Shown here piece by piece: positions 2,404-24,000 of a stretch of 24,000 nucleotides of DNA. The translations under genes were made by a program, and so were the position numbers. The notes under the pieces are model-generated. The model searched no databases and was not told the DNA's origin. It saw nothing but the letters and a program-made list of their open reading frames with translations. The stretch covers positions 32,047-56,046 of the forward strand of contig NZ_QOCW01000018.1 in the NCBI RefSeq assembly GCF_003318295.1. The letters are read 5' to 3'. How positions within the stretch are numbered: the first letter of the stretch is position 1; each line of letters begins with the position of its first letter. Source of the stretch: Bacillus taeanensis. Its GTDB lineage: Bacteria > Bacillota > Bacilli > Bacillales > UBA6769.

Positions 2404-3219
2404 CTAGAAGAAAATTAAAAGCAATACGCCGACTCCGAAGCAGTAGTATGTAAAATAAATTAGTTTTCCGTTTTTCATAATGTTCATAAACCACTTTAAC
2501 GCAAAATACGTCATGAAAAGCGTTGCCAAAAATGCCGCTGCATACGGAAGCGCTAAGTCTGCTTTATTCGGTTCATTTAAAAAGTCTGAAAAACCAAGTA
2601 TGACACCGCCAAGACTTACCGGGATATACAGCATAAACGAAAAACGAAGCGCTGTCTCTTGTTTCATGCCAACTGCAAGTGCTGTAATAATCGTTGCTCC
2701 TGAACGACTGATGCCTGGCGTTAACGCGGCAGCCTGACCTAAGCCAACAAGAAACGCATCTTTTATGGTAAGATGCTGTTCGTCTTTTCTTCCTTTACTA
2801 TTTCGAATCAACCACAGTGCTGTACCTGTCACAAAGAGCATCAAGGCAATTGTTGTGATAGTCACATTTTCAGCAATATAGTCATTTAGCAGTATCCCAA
2901 GAACACCCGCTGGAATTGTGCCAATGATGATGAAGAAAATAAAACGAAAATCACTTTTAAAGCGCGAATTTCTCGTTTTCAAATAATACATCGAGTTCAC
3001 GATCAGTCTGATGATATCTTGTTTGTATATGTAGAGAATCGCAAGCAGTGAAGCGGTATTTGTTAAAATCGCAAACGTAAATCCTTGTTCACCGAGACCC
3101 AACATTTCACTCGCAATCATCACATGTCCGCTCGACGAGACCGGAATTGGTTCGGTAAAGCCCTGCACGAGCCCGATTACGATCATTTTAATCATATAGA
3201 TAAACTCTGATTCCCCCAT
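2404..3219 (-). CDS. uppP: undecaprenyl-diphosphate phosphatase (BacA/UppP)
   Basis: 271 aa polytopic protein. Carries the UppP signatures GLVQGFTEPIPVSSSGH and PGISRSGATI. Confidence 0.9.
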   Translation of the reverse strand: MGESEFIYMIKMIVIGLVQGFTEPIPVSSSGHVMIASEMLGLGEQGFTFAILTNTASLLAILYIYKQDIIRLIVNSMYYLKTRNSRFKSDFRFIFFIIIGTIPAGVLGILLNDYIAENVTITTIALMLFVTGTALWLIRNSKGRKDEQHLTIKDAFLVGLGQAAALTPGISRSGATIITALAVGMKQETALRFSFMLYIPVSLGGVILGFSDFLNEPNKADLALPYAAAFLATLFMTYFALKWFMNIMKNGKLIYFTYYCFGVGVLLLIFF

Positions 3220-3301
3220 GTTATCCCCCTAGCTAATTGTTAACGGTTATAAAGCAGACTCCCATCAGTGAGGGGTTTTCATCATCCCCATTGATCATGT
3301 C

Positions 3302-4144
3302 TTACTGCCCGTGATGACGCGGTAAAAATTGACCAGCCTCTATCCTAGCAGCATTTTTTCCCTTAACCTGCTTTAATGTCGCTACAATCAGAAAGCTAAC
3401 AATTACTAATAACAGCCATGAACTTACCTTTCCGAGATGCACGATACTCCATGCCTCGGTTTGGTTCGGATATTGCCACGCTCCAAAGAACGTTGCGATA
3501 TTTTCAGCGATCCATATAAAAAAGCCAATGAGCACAAATGAAAGCGCGAGCGGCATACGATAGCGAGTTCCACTAACCTCGTATGTAACCGATGATTGCC
3601 AAAAGACGATCAGTACAAGTCCGGATAACCACCACCGAACGTCAATCCAATAATGGTGGGTGAAAAAATTTAAATAAATTGCCGATGCAAGCGGTACAAC
3701 AACTAAAAACGGCGGCCATTTAACTAGCTCAACGTTAAGCCTCCGCCACGCCTGGCAAAGATAACTCGCTACACTTGCGTACATGAACCCACTGTACAAA
3801 GGCACTCCGAAAATTTTAAAAATTGCTTCCTCCGGATAAGACCAAGAGCCCATTTGCACTTTGAATAGTTCAAGCGCAAGTCCGATCAGGTGAAACAATG
3901 TGATTACCTTTAGTTCATCGCGTGTTTCAAGCCCGGAGCGCACCATCCACCACTGCATCAAAAGGCAGATGATCAAGAGCCAGTCATACCTCGCGAGGAA
4001 CGGAAGCGAGATGAGTTGTGTAAAAGCCAAAGATGCAAAAATAACGACAGGAAACAAACATGATAAGGCCTGTTCCCAGCCAAAACGAATGAGTTGTTTT
4101 AGTGCTCTCATAATTTCTGCCTCCAACGTTTTTTTGAATATCAT
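3302..4144 (-). CDS. DUF817-family integral membrane protein (YoaT-like)
   Basis: 280 aa with multiple TM helices. Sits next to an HTH/DUF2975 pair, as I recall for B. subtilis yoaS-yozG-yoaT. Family assignment is from memory. Confidence 0.65.
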   Translation of the reverse strand: MIFKKTLEAEIMRALKQLIRFGWEQALSCLFPVVIFASLAFTQLISLPFLARYDWLLIICLLMQWWMVRSGLETRDELKVITLFHLIGLALELFKVQMGSWSYPEEAIFKIFGVPLYSGFMYASVASYLCQAWRRLNVELVKWPPFLVVVPLASAIYLNFFTHHYWIDVRWWLSGLVLIVFWQSSVTYEVSGTRYRMPLALSFVLIGFFIWIAENIATFFGAWQYPNQTEAWSIVHLGKVSSWLLLVIVSFLIVATLKQVKGKNAARIEAGQFLPRHHGQ

Positions 4145-4169
4145 GTAAGTCCTGCCCTATTTATTAATC

Positions 4170-4385
4170 TTATGAATCTTCATCGCTGCGGTATTCTAAA
4201 ATATCGCCTGGCTGACAGTCTAACGCTTTACAAATTGCCTCTAACGTTGATAATCGAACCGCTTTCGCCTTACCATTTTTTAATATAGAAAGATTCGCCA
4301 TTGTTATTCCAACACGCTCAGATAGTTCTGTTACACTCATTTTCCTTTTAGCCAGCATCACGTCAATGTTGATTATAATCGCCAT
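4170..4385 (-). CDS. XRE/Cro-type HTH transcriptional regulator (YozG-like)
   Basis: HTH segment MSVTELSERVGITMANLSILKNGKAKAVRLSTLEAICKAL. GAGGTG SD lies 6 nt before the ATG at 4385. The SD overlaps the stop of the upstream gene, suggesting translational coupling. Confidence 0.8.
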   Translation of the reverse strand: MAIIINIDVMLAKRKMSVTELSERVGITMANLSILKNGKAKAVRLSTLEAICKALDCQPGDILEYRSDEDS

Positions 4386-4395
4386 TGTATTCACC

Positions 4396-4878
4396 TCAGA
4401 CCGTTAAATCATTTTCTGATTTTATATCGATCGCTTCTTTTAAAAGTTTTTGAAGAACAGCCGCAAACACTGCTATTACCATTGAAGCAAAAATGATGAT
4501 CATTCCAATCAGGATGACACCTGGCGCATCATCTACTTCGCCGATGAGATAGAAAATCGGCATGTTGATTACATAGATAATACTAATTGCAATCGCACAA
4601 TATTTAATAGTTTTTAAAGCTTTTACCGAAATTTGGGAGAACGCTTTGTTTGTATCAATATAACTTAACAATTTAAAAGCTTGATACAGTGCAAAGTAAA
4701 AGGGAATTGCCGCGGCATACAAACCGATTAACGTGTAATATTTCATAAAAGCTACATCCGCAGCTAATTGCGCCGCATAATCCGCAATCTCAGGCACCAA
4801 AAAGATGCACACAGCAAGAACCGGAAGCCCAATTATAATCACCGCGATCTTTAAAAAAAGTGTTGTTCCTCGTTTCAT
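4396..4878 (-). CDS. DUF2975-like membrane protein (YoaS-like)
   Basis: Four predicted TM helices, co-transcribed with the small HTH gene. GAGGTG SD precedes the ATG at 4878; the track start at 4896 has no RBS. Confidence 0.65.
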   Translation of the reverse strand: MKRGTTLFLKIAVIIIGLPVLAVCIFLVPEIADYAAQLAADVAFMKYYTLIGLYAAAIPFYFALYQAFKLLSYIDTNKAFSQISVKALKTIKYCAIAISIIYVINMPIFYLIGEVDDAPGVILIGMIIIFASMVIAVFAAVLQKLLKEAIDIKSENDLTV

Positions 4879-5010
4879 GAAAAGCACCTCACTCATTTAT
4901 TGTCATTTTAAATCTAACACGTTATTTATCGTTTTACAATAAATTTTTATTTATTTTTATAATATTATTATTGTTATGGAATTATTCGTTTTATTTTAGA
5001 CAAAGAAAAA

Positions 5011-5042
5011 AAGCATTCCTTCTGACAAAGAAATGCTTTCTA
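5011..5042 (-). terminator. probable rho-independent terminator
   Basis: Imperfect stem GCATTCCTT / AAGAAATGC with a 6-nt loop, followed by a U-run on the minus strand (plus-strand A-run around 5006-5012). Confidence 0.45.
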
Positions 5043-5166
5043 AATTTAAGATTTAATTGATAAATGATTTAATAAACACACCTTAATATATTGTATAAAA
5101 GCAGCGGGAACAGGTATCTTTCTTCTTTTTCCAGTTTAGAGCATACAACATGTCTCCTTGGCTTCA

Positions 5167-5478
5167 TTATTCGTAATAAGGTTTATATGTAAAAGGAATA
5201 AATCTTCCTAAAATCCCTATCCCCTCTACAAATGTGAAACCACCATCTTCTCTTTCTAATTCAGTTCCTATTTTATTGAACAAAAAATAATCATCGATTT
5301 CTTTGCTTACCACTTTATAATGAATCGAGTTCAATAGACACTCATTTCCGCTGCATTCTATATTATACTCACTTGTTAACCAGTCATCAAAAGTATGGGG
5401 AGATGGTTTTGTAACGGCAAGAATTATTAGGAACAGTATTAAGCAGGTGGCAATCATTAATTTTTGTTTCTTTTTCAT
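5167..5478 (-). CDS. hypothetical membrane-anchored protein
   Basis: 103 aa with an N-terminal signal/anchor (KKKQKLMIATCLILFLIILAV). AAGGGGAAG SD lies upstream of the ATG at 5478. Confidence 0.6.
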   Translation of the reverse strand: MKKKQKLMIATCLILFLIILAVTKPSPHTFDDWLTSEYNIECSGNECLLNSIHYKVVSKEIDDYFLFNKIGTELEREDGGFTFVEGIGILGRFIPFTYKPYYE

Positions 5479-5640
5479 TTAAAAGCTTCCCCTTTTAATT
5501 TATCAAGATCCTCAATAATTACATTCGTATAAGCGATCACCTAGTATTTTATAACTTATCAAACTAACTTCATTTCTTTAACAAGAAAAGCAGTATCTCT
5601 TATTCCACTCTTGAACCTGTTATTTTAAAGGGATTGTTGT

Positions 5641-5802
5641 TTACCTTTCTTGTTGTTTCTTACAATATAAAAAAGCAGCTAAAAAACATCCAAATCCTAT
5701 TATATTCATAATTATATTACCTATATCGCCAATACTATTAATCGTTAATCCAATCAAAAAACTACCAAACAAAATAAATAGGATTGCAAAAACCAACTTC
5801 AA
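5641..5802 (-). CDS. possible 53-aa two-helix membrane peptide (below the ORF-track cutoff)
   Basis: Hand translation from TTG 5802: (M)KLVFAILFILFGSFLIGLTINSIGDIGNIIMNIIGFGCFLAAFLYCKKQQER*. AGGA lies about 9 nt upstream. Alternative TTG start at 5811. Confidence 0.3.
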   Translation of the reverse strand: MKLVFAILFILFGSFLIGLTINSIGDIGNIIMNIIGFGCFLAAFLYCKKQQER

Positions 5803-5915
5803 ATTATCCAATCCTGGTTAAATCCGACTATATAAAACCATCTAAATTCATATAAAATAACTAAAATCATGTTTTATTATAGAAAAAACAGATCTAACCA
5901 GATTCACCTCCTTTT

Positions 5916-7163
5916 TTATTCATGTTTATTCAAAAAATAAATGTGGTTAAAACGCCATAAAAGCTTAAGGCGGTTTATTCCATATCTTTTTAAAACCTTT
6001 CCTTCAGTCGTCGTCAGGTTACACTGCTTCTTTTTAGGATAAAGTGCTGTGATATATCCTTCATAGACGTCCCCATTTCGTTTCGTATAACGGACAAAGT
6101 CTCGATGGTGAAAATCATTGACTTTGTCTATTTTCTTTTTGGAACGTCTTCTCATCGGTTTGATGCACCAATCCTTGATGTGACACTGCTTAGAAGAAAC
6201 GTGTAACTGGGAAAGAACAATGGCATCGTTTGAATGGGATTTTCCAATTGCCCAGTCTATCCGCCGATTGGCCGTATCTCCTCCTGTTGTGAGCGTAAGA
6301 GGCCCGATTTTTTTCAATTCCTGTTGAAAATAAGTTTTCCCCTGCATCACGTGCATCGCATCATGGAAAGCGATCTTTTTTCCACGAATCTTTTTGAAAA
6401 ATCGTTCCGCATGATCCGATTCTTCTCCTGTTACTTGTTCGTGACAAGAGGAACAGAGTGTGATGAAGTTGTGTATCGAGTCAGAGCCTTGTAAACGTCT
6501 AGGAATAATATGATGAACTTCTAAGCGACAATGAGTATTTCCACAATCTTGACACGTAAAATGATCTCTCATTAACGCTGCTTTTCGTAAGTTTTCATCT
6601 AATCGATTGGATTTTTGATAATCCCACTGATAAGGTTGACTGCCTTTTTCCAACTTACGAATATCAATCATCACATTTTCTAAATGAATGTGGTTCACGC
6701 GAGTCCATTTCATTAGTTTGTTTAACAAGCGTAATGTTGCTTCTTTTTTTTGTTTGATACTTGGTGGGGTACGACCTTCTCTTGTTGATGATGAACGGTT
6801 ATGAAACCGTTTTGGACGATTTTTTTTGTGAGAGCGTTTATACCTTCTATAACTTCTTCTTGTGTCCATTTTATCTTTTACATCGGTGCGGTGTTCGATT
6901 GTTCCTTTAAAGACCGGTTTGTTTTTTGTTTGGCATTCTTGCACAAGGGCAATGCCAGTAAATTTAGAGCCATCATCGATATTAAAATGAATCAGTGTTT
7001 GATCGATTTTTTCGTCTGCCACTTCCTTAAAAAGTTGAATGACCATTGGAAACTTGTTGATGAGTGCTGCTTTGTTTTTTCGAATAAGAACCCAACCGCG
7101 ATTTTCATTTGTCGGAGAGAGTTTCCTTCCTTTTCCATCTAACACAAAACAGTATGAGACCAT
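5916..7163 (-). CDS. iscB: IscB-type RNA-guided endonuclease (OMEGA effector; RuvC with inserted HNH)
   Basis: 415 aa, uninterrupted, with AAGGAGG SD 10 nt before the ATG at 7163. PLMP-like N-terminus: CFVLDGKGRKLSP...FPMVIQL. RuvC-I: NIDDGSKFTGIALV (D63). Arg-rich bridge helix: RRSYRRYKRSHKKNRPKRFHNR (residues 102-123). RuvC-II: HIHLENV (E162). HNH with zinc knuckles: CQDC...EVHHIIPR...N232...CSSCH (C204/C207/C237/C240, H217/H218). RuvC-III: GKSHSNDA (H310, D313). Basic C-terminal tail. Collinear by eye with my recollection of OgeuIscB. Confidence 0.88.
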   Translation of the reverse strand: MVSYCFVLDGKGRKLSPTNENRGWVLIRKNKAALINKFPMVIQLFKEVADEKIDQTLIHFNIDDGSKFTGIALVQECQTKNKPVFKGTIEHRTDVKDKMDTRRSYRRYKRSHKKNRPKRFHNRSSSTREGRTPPSIKQKKEATLRLLNKLMKWTRVNHIHLENVMIDIRKLEKGSQPYQWDYQKSNRLDENLRKAALMRDHFTCQDCGNTHCRLEVHHIIPRRLQGSDSIHNFITLCSSCHEQVTGEESDHAERFFKKIRGKKIAFHDAMHVMQGKTYFQQELKKIGPLTLTTGGDTANRRIDWAIGKSHSNDAIVLSQLHVSSKQCHIKDWCIKPMRRRSKKKIDKVNDFHHRDFVRYTKRNGDVYEGYITALYPKKKQCNLTTTEGKVLKRYGINRLKLLWRFNHIYFLNKHE

Positions 7164-7391
7164 CTCTGGTCAGCCTCCTTCGAAAAGGGGATTGTTCTCC
7201 TTGCCAAAGTCATCAGACGGGATGTGTGCGTTCGCTGTTTCGTTTCCAAGAGGTAGGAAACAGTCTTACTTAGCACTCATAGAGCCTCAGACTGGAGAAA
7301 CATCCAAGGGTATGTCTGAACCGCTCCCTGACAACGTAGTTCATCATGCTGTCTTTCTTTCAAAAGACTACACTCACTGAGGCTTGAAAGC
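7164..7391 (-). ncRNA. candidate omega-RNA (HEARO-type) scaffold of IscB; the 5' end may extend to about 7475
   Basis: Abuts the iscB start on the same strand. About 47% G+C by hand count for 7164-7380, versus about 32% for 7381-7500. Perfect 8-bp long-range pairing AGCCUCAG (7384->7377) / CUGAGGCU (7290->7283). The first arm lies in the loop of a 7-bp stem, CUUUCAA (7390->7384) / UUGAAAG (7363->7357). Further hairpins at 7242-7261, 7300-7315 and 7177-7188. Confidence 0.6.
7174..7180 (-). promoter_or_regulatory. Shine-Dalgarno of iscB (AAGGAGG)
   Basis: Minus-strand AAGGAGG lies 10 nt upstream of the ATG. Its first four nt form the 3' arm of a CCUU-UUCG-AAGG hairpin (7177-7188). Confidence 0.7.
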
Positions 7392-7402
7392 ACAAAACAG
7401 TT

Positions 7403-7464
7403 CATATAAAACCAAGTCCTCTCGATTTTATATGATTTTTTACGGTTTTATACGAAATAAAACC
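7403..7464. repeat. two adjacent perfect AT-rich hairpins (possible IS200/605-type subterminal structures or the 5' part of the omega-RNA)
   Basis: Plus strand: CATATAAAA (7403-7411) / TTTTATATG (7426-7434) with a 14-nt loop. Also GGTTTTAT (7444-7451) / ATAAAACC (7457-7464) with a 5-nt loop. An alternative 9-bp pairing is possible between 7405-7413 and 7444-7452. Confidence 0.5.
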
Positions 7465-7548
7465 AACTGTTCCGAGCTCCTTATATTTCATGTGTGATTT
7501 TGACATTCTTATTGCACGATCCAGCTTGGTTTGCTCTTAAGAGAAGTT

Positions 7549-7683
7549 TTACTTATTTTTGATTTCTTCTAACAAGGAAATAATCTTTTCGTTTTGTTCA
7601 ATTAAGGTATTGTTCTGCTGTCTCATTCTTGTAAAATCGAATAAGAACACTATTAAAATAATTATTATAAAGACCATAGACAT
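7549..7683 (-). CDS. possible 44-aa small membrane protein (below the ORF-track cutoff)
   Basis: Hand translation: MSMVFIIIILIVFLFDFTRMRQQNNTLIEQNEKIISLLEEIKNK*. GAGGTGA SD lies 5 nt before the ATG at 7683. One TM helix plus a charged helix. Same strand as iscB and directly upstream of it. Confidence 0.45.
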   Translation of the reverse strand: MSMVFIIIILIVFLFDFTRMRQQNNTLIEQNEKIISLLEEIKNK

Positions 7684-8097: not shown

Positions 8098-8316
8098 TTA
8101 GACATTTCCTACTGTATTTGAATCGAAAACATCTGGATCTACCGCATTGGAAATACTGATTCCATTATTATTTAGTACCAAATTCCCTGTACCACTACCA
8201 GATCCTGCAATTGATTTTGATGTCTCTTCAGGGGAAATCTGCAGTGTATTTCCAAAGTTTACAGTTCCACCATTTGAGAGAAATTGAAAAGGTCCAACTA
8301 CAACAGATGGCAACAT
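8098..8316 (-). CDS. GerPA/GerPF-family spore germination protein (orphan copy)
   Basis: MLPSVVVGPFQFLSNGGTVNFGNTLQISPEETSKSIAGSGSGTGN... matches the remembered GerPF pattern (MPSVVG...SP.E..K...GSG). GGGAG SD precedes the ATG at 8316. Confidence 0.7.
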   Translation of the reverse strand: MLPSVVVGPFQFLSNGGTVNFGNTLQISPEETSKSIAGSGSGTGNLVLNNNGISISNAVDPDVFDSNTVGNV

Positions 8317-8642
8317 CCTCACTCCCTTTTTGTTTTCATTTAAATAATTTATTTTATGTTTGAAACTAAAAAAAGTTACCGTCTTCTACCTTGGGGCAAG
8401 CCCATCGAGTTTTCTTGGCTTAATTTCTATAAAACAAAGCGCGATGCTCAAAAAGCGGTAACAGAAAACCCAAATGAATCATTAATAAATTGTAAATTTT
8501 GTAAAATTTCAGTAAATACTATTCCCTATTTTCTTCAAATGTTTTATGATAATTATGAGAGTTCTCTCTCACTCTCACTTCTTTTTCATACTCAATCGCC
8601 TGCCAGTATTTAGACTTCTCTCATTTAATTTAAGTTCGGCTC

Positions 8643-8674
8643 AAAAAGACCCTTCGCGCGCAAAGGGTCTTTTT
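8643..8674. terminator. bidirectional rho-independent terminator
   Basis: AAAAAGACCCTT / AAGGGTCTTTTT, a 12-bp stem with the GC-rich loop CGCGCGCA. A/T runs lie on both sides. No convincing CDS on either side. Confidence 0.6.
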
Positions 8675-9202
8675 GCTTACCTAGCCTCAGTTTGTTAAGA
8701 TGCTAGTCACCTGCCGATTCGACAAGTGATTTTTTTCTAAACACGAATTAACGACCACGTCTCTAAAGCTCGCAATTCTAGTACTGATCAAAATCTGCCG
8801 GCTTTGGACTTTTTCCTGTATACGTTTTCAATTCAGAGAAAGGCATGTCAATATGCATTGTAATGGCATCCAGCTAAACATTTATTCGATCCTTGTCCAA
8901 TTTACTGAACATTTAAAGTAGACGAAATTAAACGACCCAAACTAGATGTATTTATATTTTATTAAATCTTGTTTCGAAGCCTAGTTAATTTTTAATAACG
9001 CTAAATCCTAGATGAAATAGATAGAAAAACTCAGTCTAATTAACCCTTAAACTTAGTTTATCCGTCGCACAAATTAATTATATACTGCCAATTTAAAATT
9101 TTCAATTATTTAGCTCTTTGATTTTTTTCTTTTAAAGTTTATTAATTTTATGTTATCGGTTATTAACTAAATGTTAAAATTTTATAAATTTTTAAAAAAT
9201 AG

Positions 9203-9232
9203 TTGAATTCCCCAAAATATTTTCTTTATAAT
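9203..9232 (+). promoter_or_regulatory. near-consensus sigmaA-type promoter upstream of the abrB-like relic
   Basis: TTGAAT (9203-9208), 18-nt spacer, TATAAT (9227-9232). Confidence 0.45.
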
Positions 9233-9239
9233 AAGGACA

Positions 9240-9446
9240 GATATTAAGAGAAAAGATCCTGTTGAAATCTTTGTTGAGGGCGATAAGGTCATTCTGAAAA
9301 AGGATTCCCCTCATCAACCTTGCCAAGTTACTAGTAAAATTTTAGAAGAGAATCCGGCTGCAGCAGGAAGAAAGCCTGTATTAAGTTGAGAGGCAGTGGA
9401 GCAAATCATTCAAAAGCTATCATCAAAGCGAAAAGTTGAATCGTGA
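9240..9446 (+). pseudogene. AbrB/Abh-family transition-state regulator relic (N-terminal DNA-binding half missing, internal stop)
   Basis: Hand translation: DIKRKDPVEIFVEGDKVILKKDSPHQPCQVTSKILEENPAAAGRKPVLS*EAVEQIIQKLSSKRKVES*. It aligns with remembered AbrB ...GIAEKDALEIYVDDEKIILKKYKPNMTCQVTGEVSDDNLKLAGGKLVLSKEGAEQIISEI. There is an in-frame TGA at 9387-9389. No start codon or coding potential for the first ~28 residues upstream. Confidence 0.6.
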
Positions 9447-9533
9447 GCGACCTATTAGTGCCGTGAAGATCATCTCTACCCATTCTCTCTTATTTACATA
9501 AAAATATATGTTTGAAGCATCATTTTAAATCTC

Positions 9534-9598
9534 AAAAAAAAGCCATTCATCCCCTGCCAAACATTCTATTGAATGTTTGAGGAAGGGAACTTCTGGCT
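9534..9598 (-). terminator. rho-independent terminator of mqo
   Basis: Long imperfect hairpin with inner stem AAACATTC / GAATGTTT and outer AGCCA / TGGCT. It is followed by a U-run on the minus strand (plus-strand A-run 9534-9541). Confidence 0.6.
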
Positions 9599-9603
9599 GA
9601 ATT
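9577..9603. repeat. left copy of a ~27-nt inverted repeat flanking mqo
   Basis: The reverse complement AATTCAGCCAGAAGTTCCCTTCCTCAA matches 11831-11859 (AATTTCAGCCAGAAGTCTCCTTCCTCAAG) with one indel and two mismatches. Confidence 0.5.
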
Positions 9604-9650
9604 TTGTTAAACTTTTTTATTCAATGATCTTGGTTTCTGCATCGAAAGAA

Positions 9651-11186
9651 TTAACTTAAGACCGGCTCTTTTGCTTTGGCTTTGGTCTTTTCTTTTGCTT
9701 TTTCGCTTATGCTTAGACCAAGTGTCTGGGCGGTTAAAGTATGAATCTCTCTTAGAAGTTCTGGATTTTCCATTAGTGACACGCCATAAGAAGGAATCAT
9801 TTCTTTAATTTTCGGTTCCCACTCTTTCACATGATCAGGGAAGCATTTTTTAATGACTTCAATCATCACGTGAACGGCAGTAGAAGCACCCGGAGAAGCG
9901 CCGAGCAGTGCTGCGATTGAGCCATCAGCGGCACTGACAACTTCCGTACCAAATTGAAGTGTTCCTTTGCCAGCTTCAGTATCTTTAATAACTTGTACAC
10001 GTTGGCCCGCTACTACTAAATCCCAATCCTCGCTTTTCGCGTTCGGGATAAACTCACGTAACTCTGCTAGGCGCTGTTCTTTCGATAACATCACTTGCTG
10101 AATCAAGTATTTTGTCAATGCCATCTCTTTTGCTCCTGCCGACAGCATTGTTAAGAGATTGTCCGGTTTTATGGAAGTTACTAAATCAAACATTGAACCG
10201 GTTTTTAAAAACTTTGGTGAGAATCCGGCAAACGGTCCAAACAGCAGCGATTTTTTATTGTCAATAAATCGGGTGTCAAGATGTGGAACAGACATTGGCG
10301 GAGCACCAACCTTCGCTTTTCCGTATACTTTTGCATGATGCTGTGCTGTAACATCTGGATTATTACACACCATAAAGATGCCGCTTACCGGAAAACCACC
10401 AATATTTTTCCCTTCAGGAATACCGGACTTTTGCAGTAAATGGATGCTTCCTCCCCCGCCTCCGATAAAGACGAATTTGGCAGTATGGCGTTCGACAGTG
10501 CCGCGATCGAGATTGCGCACTTTCAATTCCCATAAACCGTCGCTAGTACGTTTAATATCACTTACACTATGTTTGTAGTTTAGATCGATATTTTTACTCT
10601 CTAAGTGGTCAAACAACATACGCGTTAAAGCACCAAAATTGACATCCGTTCCAGAGTCGATTTTAGTAGCCGCGATCGCTTCATTCGATGCGCGTTCCTG
10701 CATAATAAGCGGAATCCATTCTTTCAGTTTTTCCGGATCCTCAGAAAATTCCATCCCTTGGAATAAGGGATTGTTTGACAGCGCTTCAAAACGTTTCTTT
10801 AAAAATGTGACATTTTGTTCTCCTTGTACGAAACTCATATGAGGCAGCGGCATAATAAAATCCTGTGGATTCTCTATCAGCTTGTTGTTTACAAGATAAG
10901 ACCAAAACTGCATGGAAAGCTGAAACTGTTCGTTAATGTTTATAGCTTTACTAATATCAACAGATCCATCTGGTTTTTCTTTTGTGTAGTTAAGCTCGCA
11001 CAATGCCGCATGACCTGTGCCTGCATTATTCCATTCGTTCGAGCTTTCCTCTCCTGCTTTTGAGAGCTTCTCAAACACTGTAATTTTCCATTCTGGTACT
11101 AGTTCTTTTAAGAGTGTTCCTAAAGTTGCACTCATGATTCCCGCGCCAATTAAAATGACGTCTGTTTTAGTTTCTCTATTGCTCAT
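9651..11186 (-). CDS. mqo: malate:quinone oxidoreductase
   Basis: FAD-binding fold [15 protein letters not shown] near the N-terminus and Mqo-typical length. Start taken as the ATG at 11186 ([10 protein letters not shown]...) rather than the track start at 11234. Confidence 0.88.
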
Positions 11187-11830
11187 GTTTACCAACCTTT
11201 TCTCTAAAATTTGCCGAAAAGATGCAGGCGTCACACTAAGCTAAGGAGCCCTCTAGTCACACACATCTTTTCTGTATCAATGAACCATATCAAAGTGTAT
11301 TACTATCATTATACATTAAATTTTCTACTATTATCTGATAATTATAAACTATTTGAAGCTGATAAAAAAGTGAGAAGTCCTTTCAAAAGGCAGAGTTACA
11401 CCGATTTTTAACTTTATTTTCACATTTGTTCTCTTCCAAAAAGAAAACGCTGCTCTTCGACTTCGAATTGTTTTTTACTCGTATGAAAATGGATAATGCT
11501 TTTTCAAAAAATACACATTAATTTTTTTATATCCATCCGATGCTGTATTTAAACTTATATATTCTGTTATAAAAACCACTTTTTCAAATATTTGTTTCTT
11601 TTCGTTTGAGTAAGCAGCGATGGCCTCGACTTATACAAACTTATTAGGATCTTTCTTATCTCCGTCCACTTTAAAATGATTAATTTCTCAAATGTTCTTA
11701 CGCCTATCTTACCGCGACTTCTATCTTAGGGCAAGTCCACGAATGTTCCAAAAACATTGAGCAGCTCATATGGGTTTTTAGAGTTAAAGAGATTATGTAT
11801 ATGAGGTTTTTTATCTTACTATATTTAACG

Positions 11831-11859
11831 AATTTCAGCCAGAAGTCTCCTTCCTCAAG
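11831..11859. repeat. right copy of the ~27-nt inverted repeat flanking mqo
   Basis: See 9577-9603. Confidence 0.5.
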
Positions 11860-11941
11860 CGCGAAGCAGTAGGGAGGGGAGGTTCATGGAGACCTGAACC
11901 TATTGAGATATCCTCAAAAACAGCATGATAAAAACCAAAGC

Positions 11942-11983
11942 AAAAACCTAGTGAAAAGTTACAAAACTTCTCACTAGGTTTTA
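11942..11983. terminator. bidirectional terminator downstream of the WrbA-like gene
   Basis: Stem AACCTAGTGAAAAGTT / AACTTCTCACTAGGTT (one mismatch) with a 4-nt loop, flanked by an A-run and a T-run. Confidence 0.6.
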
Positions 11984-12016
11984 TTATTTGAAGCTTTTGA
12001 GACAGCTCCCTATCAT

Positions 12017-23260: not shown

Positions 23261-24000
23261 TCACTTCGAAACTACTTTCTTTTCATCTAAGTCATCATCA
23301 TTATTATGTTGTGGTATAAAAGACTCTTTCTTCTTAAAACGATTTGAAATAATCGGGAAGAATAAAGCAACTAAAGCAATAAGAATAATGATTAAAGAAA
23401 TTGGACGTGTAAAGAATGAAAAGTAATCGCCATTCGTAATTAACAACTGTCTTCTAAAGTTTTCTTCCATCATCATACCAAGTACTAATCCTAAGATCAT
23501 TGCAGCAGGAGAAAATAAATATTTTTTCATAAAGAAACCGATTACACCAAAAAGAACCATAACCCACACTTGAAACAAATCATTTGCAACCGCATATGAA
23601 CCAATCACAGACAAGAGAACAATAAATGGCCCTAAAATGTAATAAGGGAGCTTTAAAATTGCTGCAAATGCTTTAACCCCAATCCGACCACCTATGAATA
23701 CGGTTACACTTGCAATTAACATTGAAAAGAAAATGCTATATAAAAGAAGCGGCTGTTCTGACATTAACTGCGGACCAGGCTGAAGACCTTGAAGTACAAG
23801 CGCCGCTAAAATAACTGCTGTTGTAGGACTCCCTGGAATTCCTAGAACTAGTGTTGGGATCATTGCACCGCCAGCAGCTGCATTATTTGATGATTCAGGG
23901 GCAATAACACCCTCTTCGGCACCTTCACCAAACTTTTTCTTATCTTTACTTGAACGCATCACTTCACCATAAGCAACAATTGAAGCAATAGAGCCGCCTG
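23261..24000 (-). CDS. tctA: tripartite tricarboxylate transporter permease TctA (C-terminal part; 5' end lies beyond the window)
   Basis: GGAMIPTLVLGIPGSPTTAVILAALVLQGLQPGP is a TctA signature. The ORF is open to the window edge. Confidence 0.82.
   Translation of the reverse strand, partial: GGSIASIVAYGEVMRSSKDKKKFGEGAEEGVIAPESSNNAAAGGAMIPTLVLGIPGSPTTAVILAALVLQGLQPGPQLMSEQPLLLYSIFFSMLIASVTVFIGGRIGVKAFAAILKLPYYILGPFIVLLSVIGSYAVANDLFQVWVMVLFGVIGFFMKKYLFSPAAMILGLVLGMMMEENFRRQLLITNGDYFSFFTRPISLIIILIALVALFFPIISNRFKKKESFIPQHNNDDDLDEKKVVSK

Follow-up and report, generated by a model that had tools for sequence, protein, structure and literature searches.

IscB is a small RNA-guided DNA-cutting enzyme from which Cas9 evolved, and IscB-omegaRNA elements have been characterized since 2021. 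We analyzed a 24-kb stretch of Bacillus taeanensis DNA (RefSeq assembly GCF_003318295.1, contig NZ_QOCW01000018.1, positions 32,047 to 56,046 of the forward strand; hereafter the window, with positions counted from its first letter), whose minus strand carries an iscB gene directly preceded by its omegaRNA. The analysis confirms an intact IscB-omegaRNA element here, of a kind already known and annotated. The identical protein is listed in NCBI as 'RNA-guided endonuclease IscB [Bacillus taeanensis]', hence the finding is correct but not new, and more than 1,500 homologs were recovered at E <= 1e-10.

The biology of related elements has been worked out by Meers et al. (bioRxiv 10.1101/2023.03.14.532601), who found that the right end of the transposon gives rise to the IscB scaffold, with the guide lying outside the element, and that excision leaves a donor joint at which the nuclease cuts, whereupon recombination restores the element. 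Transcription of the IscB RNA must come from outside the element, and upstream genes are therefore co-oriented with it (bioRxiv 10.1101/2023.03.14.532601).

Among the described systems, HfmIscB (9k2z, a cryo-EM structure with omegaRNA and target DNA released in 2026) is the best match by both sequence and fold. It shares with the window protein its domain order, catalytic residues, and compact size without a REC-like insert, but is a different ortholog that differs by many substitutions. GstIscB is encoded by ISGst5 of Geobacillus stearothermophilus (bioRxiv 10.1101/2023.03.14.532601), also a Bacillaceae non-autonomous IS605-family element comprising only iscB and omegaRNA, and a scaffold taken from the transposon end, an external guide, upstream transcription, and homing by donor-joint cutting are all shared with the model proposed below. 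However, GstIscB belongs to another IscB subclade, with catalytic D58/H209/H210 in place of D63/H217/H218, and uses the target-adjacent motif (TAM) TTCAT (ATGAA in iscB orientation) rather than the AGG-like motif predicted for the window clade. OgeuIscB (7xht, 7utn, 8csz) has the same architecture and active sites but is distant from the window protein and larger (496 aa versus 415 aa), the latter missing about 30 residues between the bridge helix and RuvC-II; its TAM is NWRRNA (PMC12660989). The IS607 TnpB with a RAGATH-18-derived guide RNA (PMC11061315) is a Firmicute OMEGA nuclease with a Shine-Dalgarno-like AGGAG TAM. Unlike the window IscB, it has RuvC only, a 5' TAM, a 3' guide, and an associated serine recombinase.

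The iscB gene and its protein

5916-7163, minus strand: iscB gene, 415 aa, an intact open reading frame (ORF) with profile and structure matches

This ORF encodes a genuine, intact IscB with conserved active sites. It starts with ATG, is free of frameshifts, and is preceded by AAGGAGG at 7180-7174 (minus strand), 10 nt ahead of the start codon. A preliminary description of the locus, made from its letters alone, had already named a 415-aa minus-strand IscB without frameshift and with a strong Shine-Dalgarno sequence, and the order of motifs that it proposed was likewise borne out. From the N terminus, the protein comprises a PLMP-like domain, RuvC-I (D63 in IDDG), an arginine-rich bridge helix, RuvC-II (E162 in LENV), an HNH insert (C204/C207, H217/H218 in VHHIIPR, N232, and C237/C240/H241, the cysteines forming two CxxC pairs), RuvC-III (H310 and D313 in HSNDA), and a beta-rich C-terminal domain.

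Searches against IscB, RRXRR, and HNH profiles, which the preliminary description had suggested as a check, all returned strong matches. NCBIfam NF040563 (RNA-guided endonuclease IscB, guided_IscB equivalog) scored 274.4 bits against a cut-off of 175, residues 5-316 aligning with profile positions 1-312 of 314, while Pfam RRXRR covered residues 6-184 with 154 bits and Pfam HNH, positioned between RuvC-II and RuvC-III, covered residues 204-245 with 38.6 bits. The arginine-rich bridge helix (RRXRR) and the PLMP-like N-terminal domain are both present; the PLMP motif itself reads KLSP in the window protein and its clade, with P17 conserved. D63, E162, H310, and D313 align with the RuvC catalytic residues of OgeuIscB and HfmIscB, and H217/H218 with those of HNH, confirming the homology that had been suggested for D63, E162, H217, and D313. 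Across 22 aligned clade members, the catalytic residues were invariant with the exception of D63 (21/22), and C204/C207, H217/H218, N232, and C237/C240/H241 were all invariant.

Searching the PDB by sequence returned HfmIscB-omegaRNA-target DNA (9k2z) as the best match (E 5.8e-141, 473 bits, residues 2-412), followed by TbaIscB, several OgeuIscB entries (E 1e-16), and IsrB. An AlphaFold model built on the 22-sequence clade alignment gave the same picture in a fold search, whereby the top ten PDB matches were IscB or IsrB ribonucleoprotein complexes and ranks 11-13 were type II-D Cas9. The nearest solved structures are therefore IscB-omegaRNA-target DNA complexes by both routes, as the preliminary description would have it. 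The protein lacks a REC lobe, its 415 aa fall within the IscB size of about 400-500 aa, and the inserts of TbaIscB and Cas9-type proteins have no counterpart when it is aligned with them. By analogy with these relatives, the window IscB would act as an RNA-guided, TAM-dependent nuclease of double-stranded DNA.

The omegaRNA scaffold

7164-7480, minus strand: omegaRNA scaffold (HEARO-like), about 317 nt, starting GGAGCU; recognized by profile, fold, and covariation

The leader at 7164-7480 is a conserved, covarying omegaRNA of this iscB. For comparison, 91 related loci (L001-L091) were collected from genomes and metagenomes, and the 317-nt RNA was analyzed with an nhmmer profile of the iscB-upstream region, RNAalifold, and pair counting. 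The profile had a single match in the window (7480-7164, minus strand) and matched directly upstream of the iscB ORF in 91/91 related loci. RNAalifold applied to 63 distinct sequences of the core (window 7392-7164) returned 39 pairs in ten helices, long-range pairs included. At these positions 94.1% of cells were paired, compared with 29-44% when the 3' partners were slid by 1-3 columns, and compensatory double changes occurred in 31 of the 39 pairs, with 0/500 shuffles matching the observed values. The window RNA itself forms 36/39 consensus pairs, the three exceptions resembling a one-base register shift. A further hairpin (7262-7233, GUUUCC/GGAAAC) covaries by eye but was left uncounted, since its MAFFT alignment is one column out of step between subgroups. 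Folding of the entire leader gave -104 kcal/mol (z = -5.5), and 0/100 shuffles were as good.

The 5' domain (7480-7393) consists of a 10-bp stem, CGGAACAGUU/AACUGUUUUG, that carries two hairpins and covaries with AUCAAC/GUUGAU of Niallia. The core (7392-7164) holds the ten covarying helices, including long-range pairs of 7383-7381 with 7205-7203. The last scaffold hairpin (CCCCUU/AAGGAGG) contains the iscB Shine-Dalgarno sequence; the final hairpin of IsrB has likewise been reported to contain a Shine-Dalgarno sequence (PMC9581776). The structured leader of the preliminary description is upheld by fold and covariation but not in its extent, as the scaffold starts at 7480 and the stretch from 7481 to about 7496/7500 is predicted to be guide.

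Rfam was run on the window both at gathering thresholds and in E-value mode. At gathering thresholds there was no call anywhere in the window. In E-value mode, HEARO (RF02033) matched 7189-7423 on the minus strand over its full model length (positions 1-211) with 40.8 bits (E 9e-7 in a 1-kb search and 2e-5 over the whole window), and the match included the long-range pairing and main hairpins of the model. The HEARO match that had been anticipated on the minus-strand leader was thus found at full length, yet it falls below the Rfam gathering score of 83, and the window RNA has an extra 5' domain (7480-7424) that extends beyond it; consequently, the omegaRNA call rests mainly on conservation and covariation. 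Clade relatives also scored low against HEARO (37-45 bits; the window, L003, and L006 examined). As the omegaRNAs of this Bacillota clade miss the HEARO threshold, automatic Rfam annotation leaves the RNA half of such loci unmarked. One related locus, L001 (3845-3999), has kept only the 3' half of its omegaRNA, a sign of decay.

Element boundaries and guide

7481-7496, minus strand: predicted guide, CACACAUGAAAUAUAA, flanking DNA immediately 5' of the scaffold and outside the element
5816-5915, minus strand: distal end of the element (left end in TnpA terms), AAGGAGGTGA plus an inverted repeat

To set the element ends, we compared sibling copies from other genomes and took the point at which homology stops. 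In a Niallia genome with three copies (L004, L007, and L008), the sequence is common from GGAGCT on and diverges immediately before it, and other sibling sets showed the same boundary behavior with starts at GGAACT or GGACT. By this comparison, the scaffold starts at 7480 in the window. Distal homology among siblings stops at ...ACCAG(G), for which the window equivalent is 5813-5816. The element is therefore about 1.67 kb long (about 5813/5816 to 7480) and contains iscB, the scaffold, and an end of about 100 bp with an inverted repeat, and nothing else. Given the arrangement in characterized IscBs, the flank from 7481 to about 7496 would serve as the guide, with its length of 16 nt taken over from known IscBs; the sequence CACACAUGAAAUAUAA occurs once in the window.

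At the distal end, 5814-5824 and 5891-5901 form an inverted repeat in which 10/11 bases are complementary. Within it lies a 19-nt tandem duplication (5830-5870, 2.1 copies) that widens the loop relative to related elements. Hairpins are found at both element ends and AGGAG-like motifs at both junctions, with the distal hairpin beginning at the boundary, and GG is present at both junctions (flank-A/GG/AGCT... and ...ACCA/GG/flank).

The sequence AAGGAGGTGA (5902-5914, minus strand), located right after the iscB stop codon, is perfectly conserved and in the same position in L001-L014 and L090. In sequence it is an ideal Bacillus ribosome-binding site, but it is followed by the terminal hairpin and not by a start codon. 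Possible roles are binding of a transposase, end recognition as a DNA 'guide', and action as a decoy.

Target-adjacent motif

5811-5815, minus strand: candidate TAM, AGGAT, the first bases past the end of homology (...AACC/AGG)
5641-5811, minus strand: downstream small membrane protein ORF, 56 aa from TTG 5811 or 53 aa from TTG 5802

Distal ends in the clade stop exactly at AGG (Bacillaceae type, ...ACC/AGGNN) or AGGAG (Clostridia type, ...A/AGGAG), and a start codon on the same strand follows 5-9 nt beyond. With junctions placed blind, wherever homology between siblings ended, the start codon of an ORF of at least 40 codons lay within 16 nt at 23 of 28 distinct insertion sites, compared with 19% at random same-strand positions of the same loci. 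These ends and start codons suggest an AGG- or AGGAG-like TAM for the clade, probably provided by the Shine-Dalgarno sequence of the gene downstream. In the window, AGGA precedes TTG 5802 of the downstream small ORF by 9 nt, the element end borders directly on the ribosome-binding site of this ORF, and AGGAT (5815-5811) is likely also its Shine-Dalgarno sequence. The scaffold side opens with a similar motif, (A)GGAGC, and the empty site is accordingly predicted to read guide, AGG(AG), spacer, and start codon, which for the window would be ...CACACATGAAATATAA/AGGATTGGATAATTTG.

A nested pair of IscB elements in Geobacillus (L090/L091, 2461-5630) provides a natural example that supports a Shine-Dalgarno-like TAM. 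There, a canonical HEARO RNA (153 bits, 2461-2682) is split from its own iscB ORF (4337-5596) by an element of the window family (about 2692-4327), which sits just before the start codon of the other-type iscB. After this other-type ORF comes ATGAA, which is the ISGst5 TAM in reverse complement. Another locus, L015, resembles a deletion hybrid of the two nested elements.

We tentatively extend these patterns, with confidence a little short of even, to a general rule in which the clade would use the Shine-Dalgarno core (AGG/AGGAG) as both target and TAM, so that elements settle in sense orientation with a transcribed gene on their upstream side and the ribosome-binding site of the following gene immediately on the other. 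If this is true, the insertion site would feed transcription into the guide RNA and leave the downstream gene translatable, and every guide would consist of the 16 nt that directly precede a ribosome-binding site. In a stronger version, the target, and perhaps the transposase, may be common to this clade and the AGGAG-targeting IS607 TnpB elements of Firmicutes. The literature searched contained no report of an AGGAG TAM for IscB, nor of a link to IS607 TnpB. If confirmed, a Shine-Dalgarno-like TAM would explain the placement of these elements in operons and give a very small nuclease a simple TAM of the AGG type. Precise boundaries, a predicted guide, and a scaffold are now available for this intact and very compact IscB (415 aa), a potential editor.

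Element class, proposed mechanism, and alternatives

7549-7683, minus strand: upstream small membrane protein ORF, 44 aa, on the same strand as iscB

We are confident in assigning the locus to the IS200/IS605 superfamily ('ISC') as a non-autonomous insertion sequence of about 1.67 kb that carries only iscB and its omegaRNA and lies in the B. taeanensis chromosome. No Y1 (HUH) TnpA was found in the window or recurring beside the related loci. The window ORFs of at least 80 aa had no match to Y1 transposase, cas1, or cas2, and a search of the 24 kb for a repeat-spacer or CRISPR-like array found none, all as the preliminary description had stated. Its presentation of these absences as a special feature was not sustained, however, because they are normal for IscB loci: about 1.5% of iscB genes are near tnpA (Meers et al., bioRxiv 10.1101/2023.03.14.532601). 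Given this figure and the existence of non-autonomous members, the missing Y1 TnpA does not exclude membership in IS200/IS605.

Transcription, RNA-guided cleavage, and a homing role are proposed here from characterized relatives. Transcription would enter from the co-oriented upstream small gene, giving a transcript whose 5' part is about 16 nt of flank (the guide) and whose remainder is the scaffold of about 317 nt. The 44-aa ORF, which ends 68 nt before the scaffold, is the likely source of such read-through, and the intervening 68 nt yielded no call of a terminator-like site. IscB, with its split RuvC, inserted HNH, bridge helix, and C-terminal domain that would read the TAM, and without a REC lobe, would bind the scaffold. 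The complex would then recognize an 'empty' site, in which DNA matching the guide is directly followed by the TAM; such a site would be present only after excision of the element or on a sister chromosome without it. Both strands would be cut by IscB, and homologous repair would copy the element back, resulting in homing or retention. To move to new sites, the element would depend on a transposase acting in trans and encoded elsewhere in the genome.

Several observations weigh against this interpretation. The AlphaFold model is of moderate confidence (mean predicted local distance difference test score 63.7) and its TM-scores are low, although the ranking of hits is unambiguous. The RNA scores below the Rfam gathering score for HEARO, and no promoter for the guide and scaffold RNA was found at the locus. 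At the distal end, the minimum-energy DNA fold (z = -0.3) does not include the inverted repeat, and in view of this and the 19-nt duplication the window copy may no longer be mobilizable.

These last points bear directly on the strongest alternative, in which the locus is an immobile relic whose nuclease and RNA are intact but whose capacity for excision or copying has been lost, the element either decaying slowly or being kept for a host-level role. We consider this unlikely. The tandem duplication and 66-nt loop at the distal end, where relatives have tight hairpins, would fit such a relic, as would the lack of a transposase in the window and the decay seen in related loci (L001 without the RNA 5' half and L004 with a stop at codon 347 of the ORF). 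Set against them are the full-length ORF with every catalytic residue kept and the 36/39 consensus pairs formed by the RNA, while the presence of three diverged copies in one species speaks for fairly recent mobility.

A second alternative is a different mover, namely an IS607-type serine recombinase, with crossover at the GG of both junctions, in place of Y1 (HUH) TnpA. In IS608 the hairpin is spaced relative to the boundary; here the terminal hairpin begins at the boundary. GG is indeed present at both junctions, and the predicted AGGAG-like TAM is the motif of most Firmicutes IS607 TnpBs (PMC11061315). We nevertheless regard this mover as improbable, and distinctly more so than a relic: serine resolvases are associated with tnpB and not iscB (Meers et al., bioRxiv 10.1101/2023.03.14.532601), the 135 ORFs neighboring related loci include no recurrent resolvase family, and the Y1 mechanism also predicts similar end motifs, with the TAM outside the left end and its match inside the right end (bioRxiv 10.1101/2023.03.14.532601).

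Two further readings can be all but set aside. A stand-alone, McrA-like HNH homing or restriction endonuclease without RNA guide is hinted at by the Pfam HNH match and by the source names of some homologs ('HNH endonuclease' or 'McrA'), but HNH occupies only residues 204-245 of 415, the remainder being the RRXRR/RuvC fold of IscB, and this reading leaves the conserved, covarying upstream RNA unexplained; it is contradicted by the NCBIfam IscB score, the PDB alignments, and the RNA covariation. Equally implausible is a miniature type II CRISPR-Cas9 effector with its array and adaptation genes beyond the window, for which the weaker fold matches to type II-D Cas9 structures (ranks 11-13) could be cited, since the protein, at 415 aa, lacks a REC lobe, the gene leader has the guide RNA fused to it, no repeats or cas genes occur in the window or beside related loci, and the best matches are transposon IscBs.

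Neighboring genes, additional copies, and other observations

The neighbors of the IS200/IS605-type element in the window are ordinary chromosomal genes (LysR, BacA/UppP, DUF817, Mqo, flavodoxin-like, DoxX, MarR, SpoU methylase, and LysE), in keeping with the setting given in the preliminary description. Beside about 60 related loci, 135 flanking ORFs were inspected; no transposase or resolvase family recurred among them, there were no repeats or cas genes, and 113/135 were on the iscB strand. Homologs of the 44-aa upstream ORF are annotated on two Bacillus-type plasmids, and a search for an empty site via these plasmid homologs found no downstream synteny. Searches of phage and plasmid DNA returned distant HNH/IscB gene fragments only, with no sign of a phage or plasmid location.

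B. taeanensis encodes three paralogous IscB proteins on three contigs, the other two being at 90% and 89% identity to the window protein. The Niallia genome likewise has three sibling copies, each with different flanks. In one of these, L004 (4001-5229), the iscB frame stops at codon 347 while homology runs on to residue 410, indicating decay.

Elsewhere in the window, the stretches that flank mqo (9651-11234), at 8330-9650 (about 1.3 kb) and 11235-12016 (about 0.8 kb), lack any convincing gene. Their longest ORFs measure 85 aa (8356-8613, without a Pfam match) and 66 aa, and there was no Rfam hit; these stretches could be degraded genes or long regulatory regions. A lone spore germination gene of the gerPA/gerPF family (74 aa, Pfam E 1e-16) lies at 8098-8322 on the minus strand, with no further gerP-family ORF found near it. 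Toward the window edge, an ORF at 23261-23962 (minus strand) aligns with no more than the C-terminal third of the TctA transporter profile (269-423 of 423 positions) and may be a split or truncated gene.

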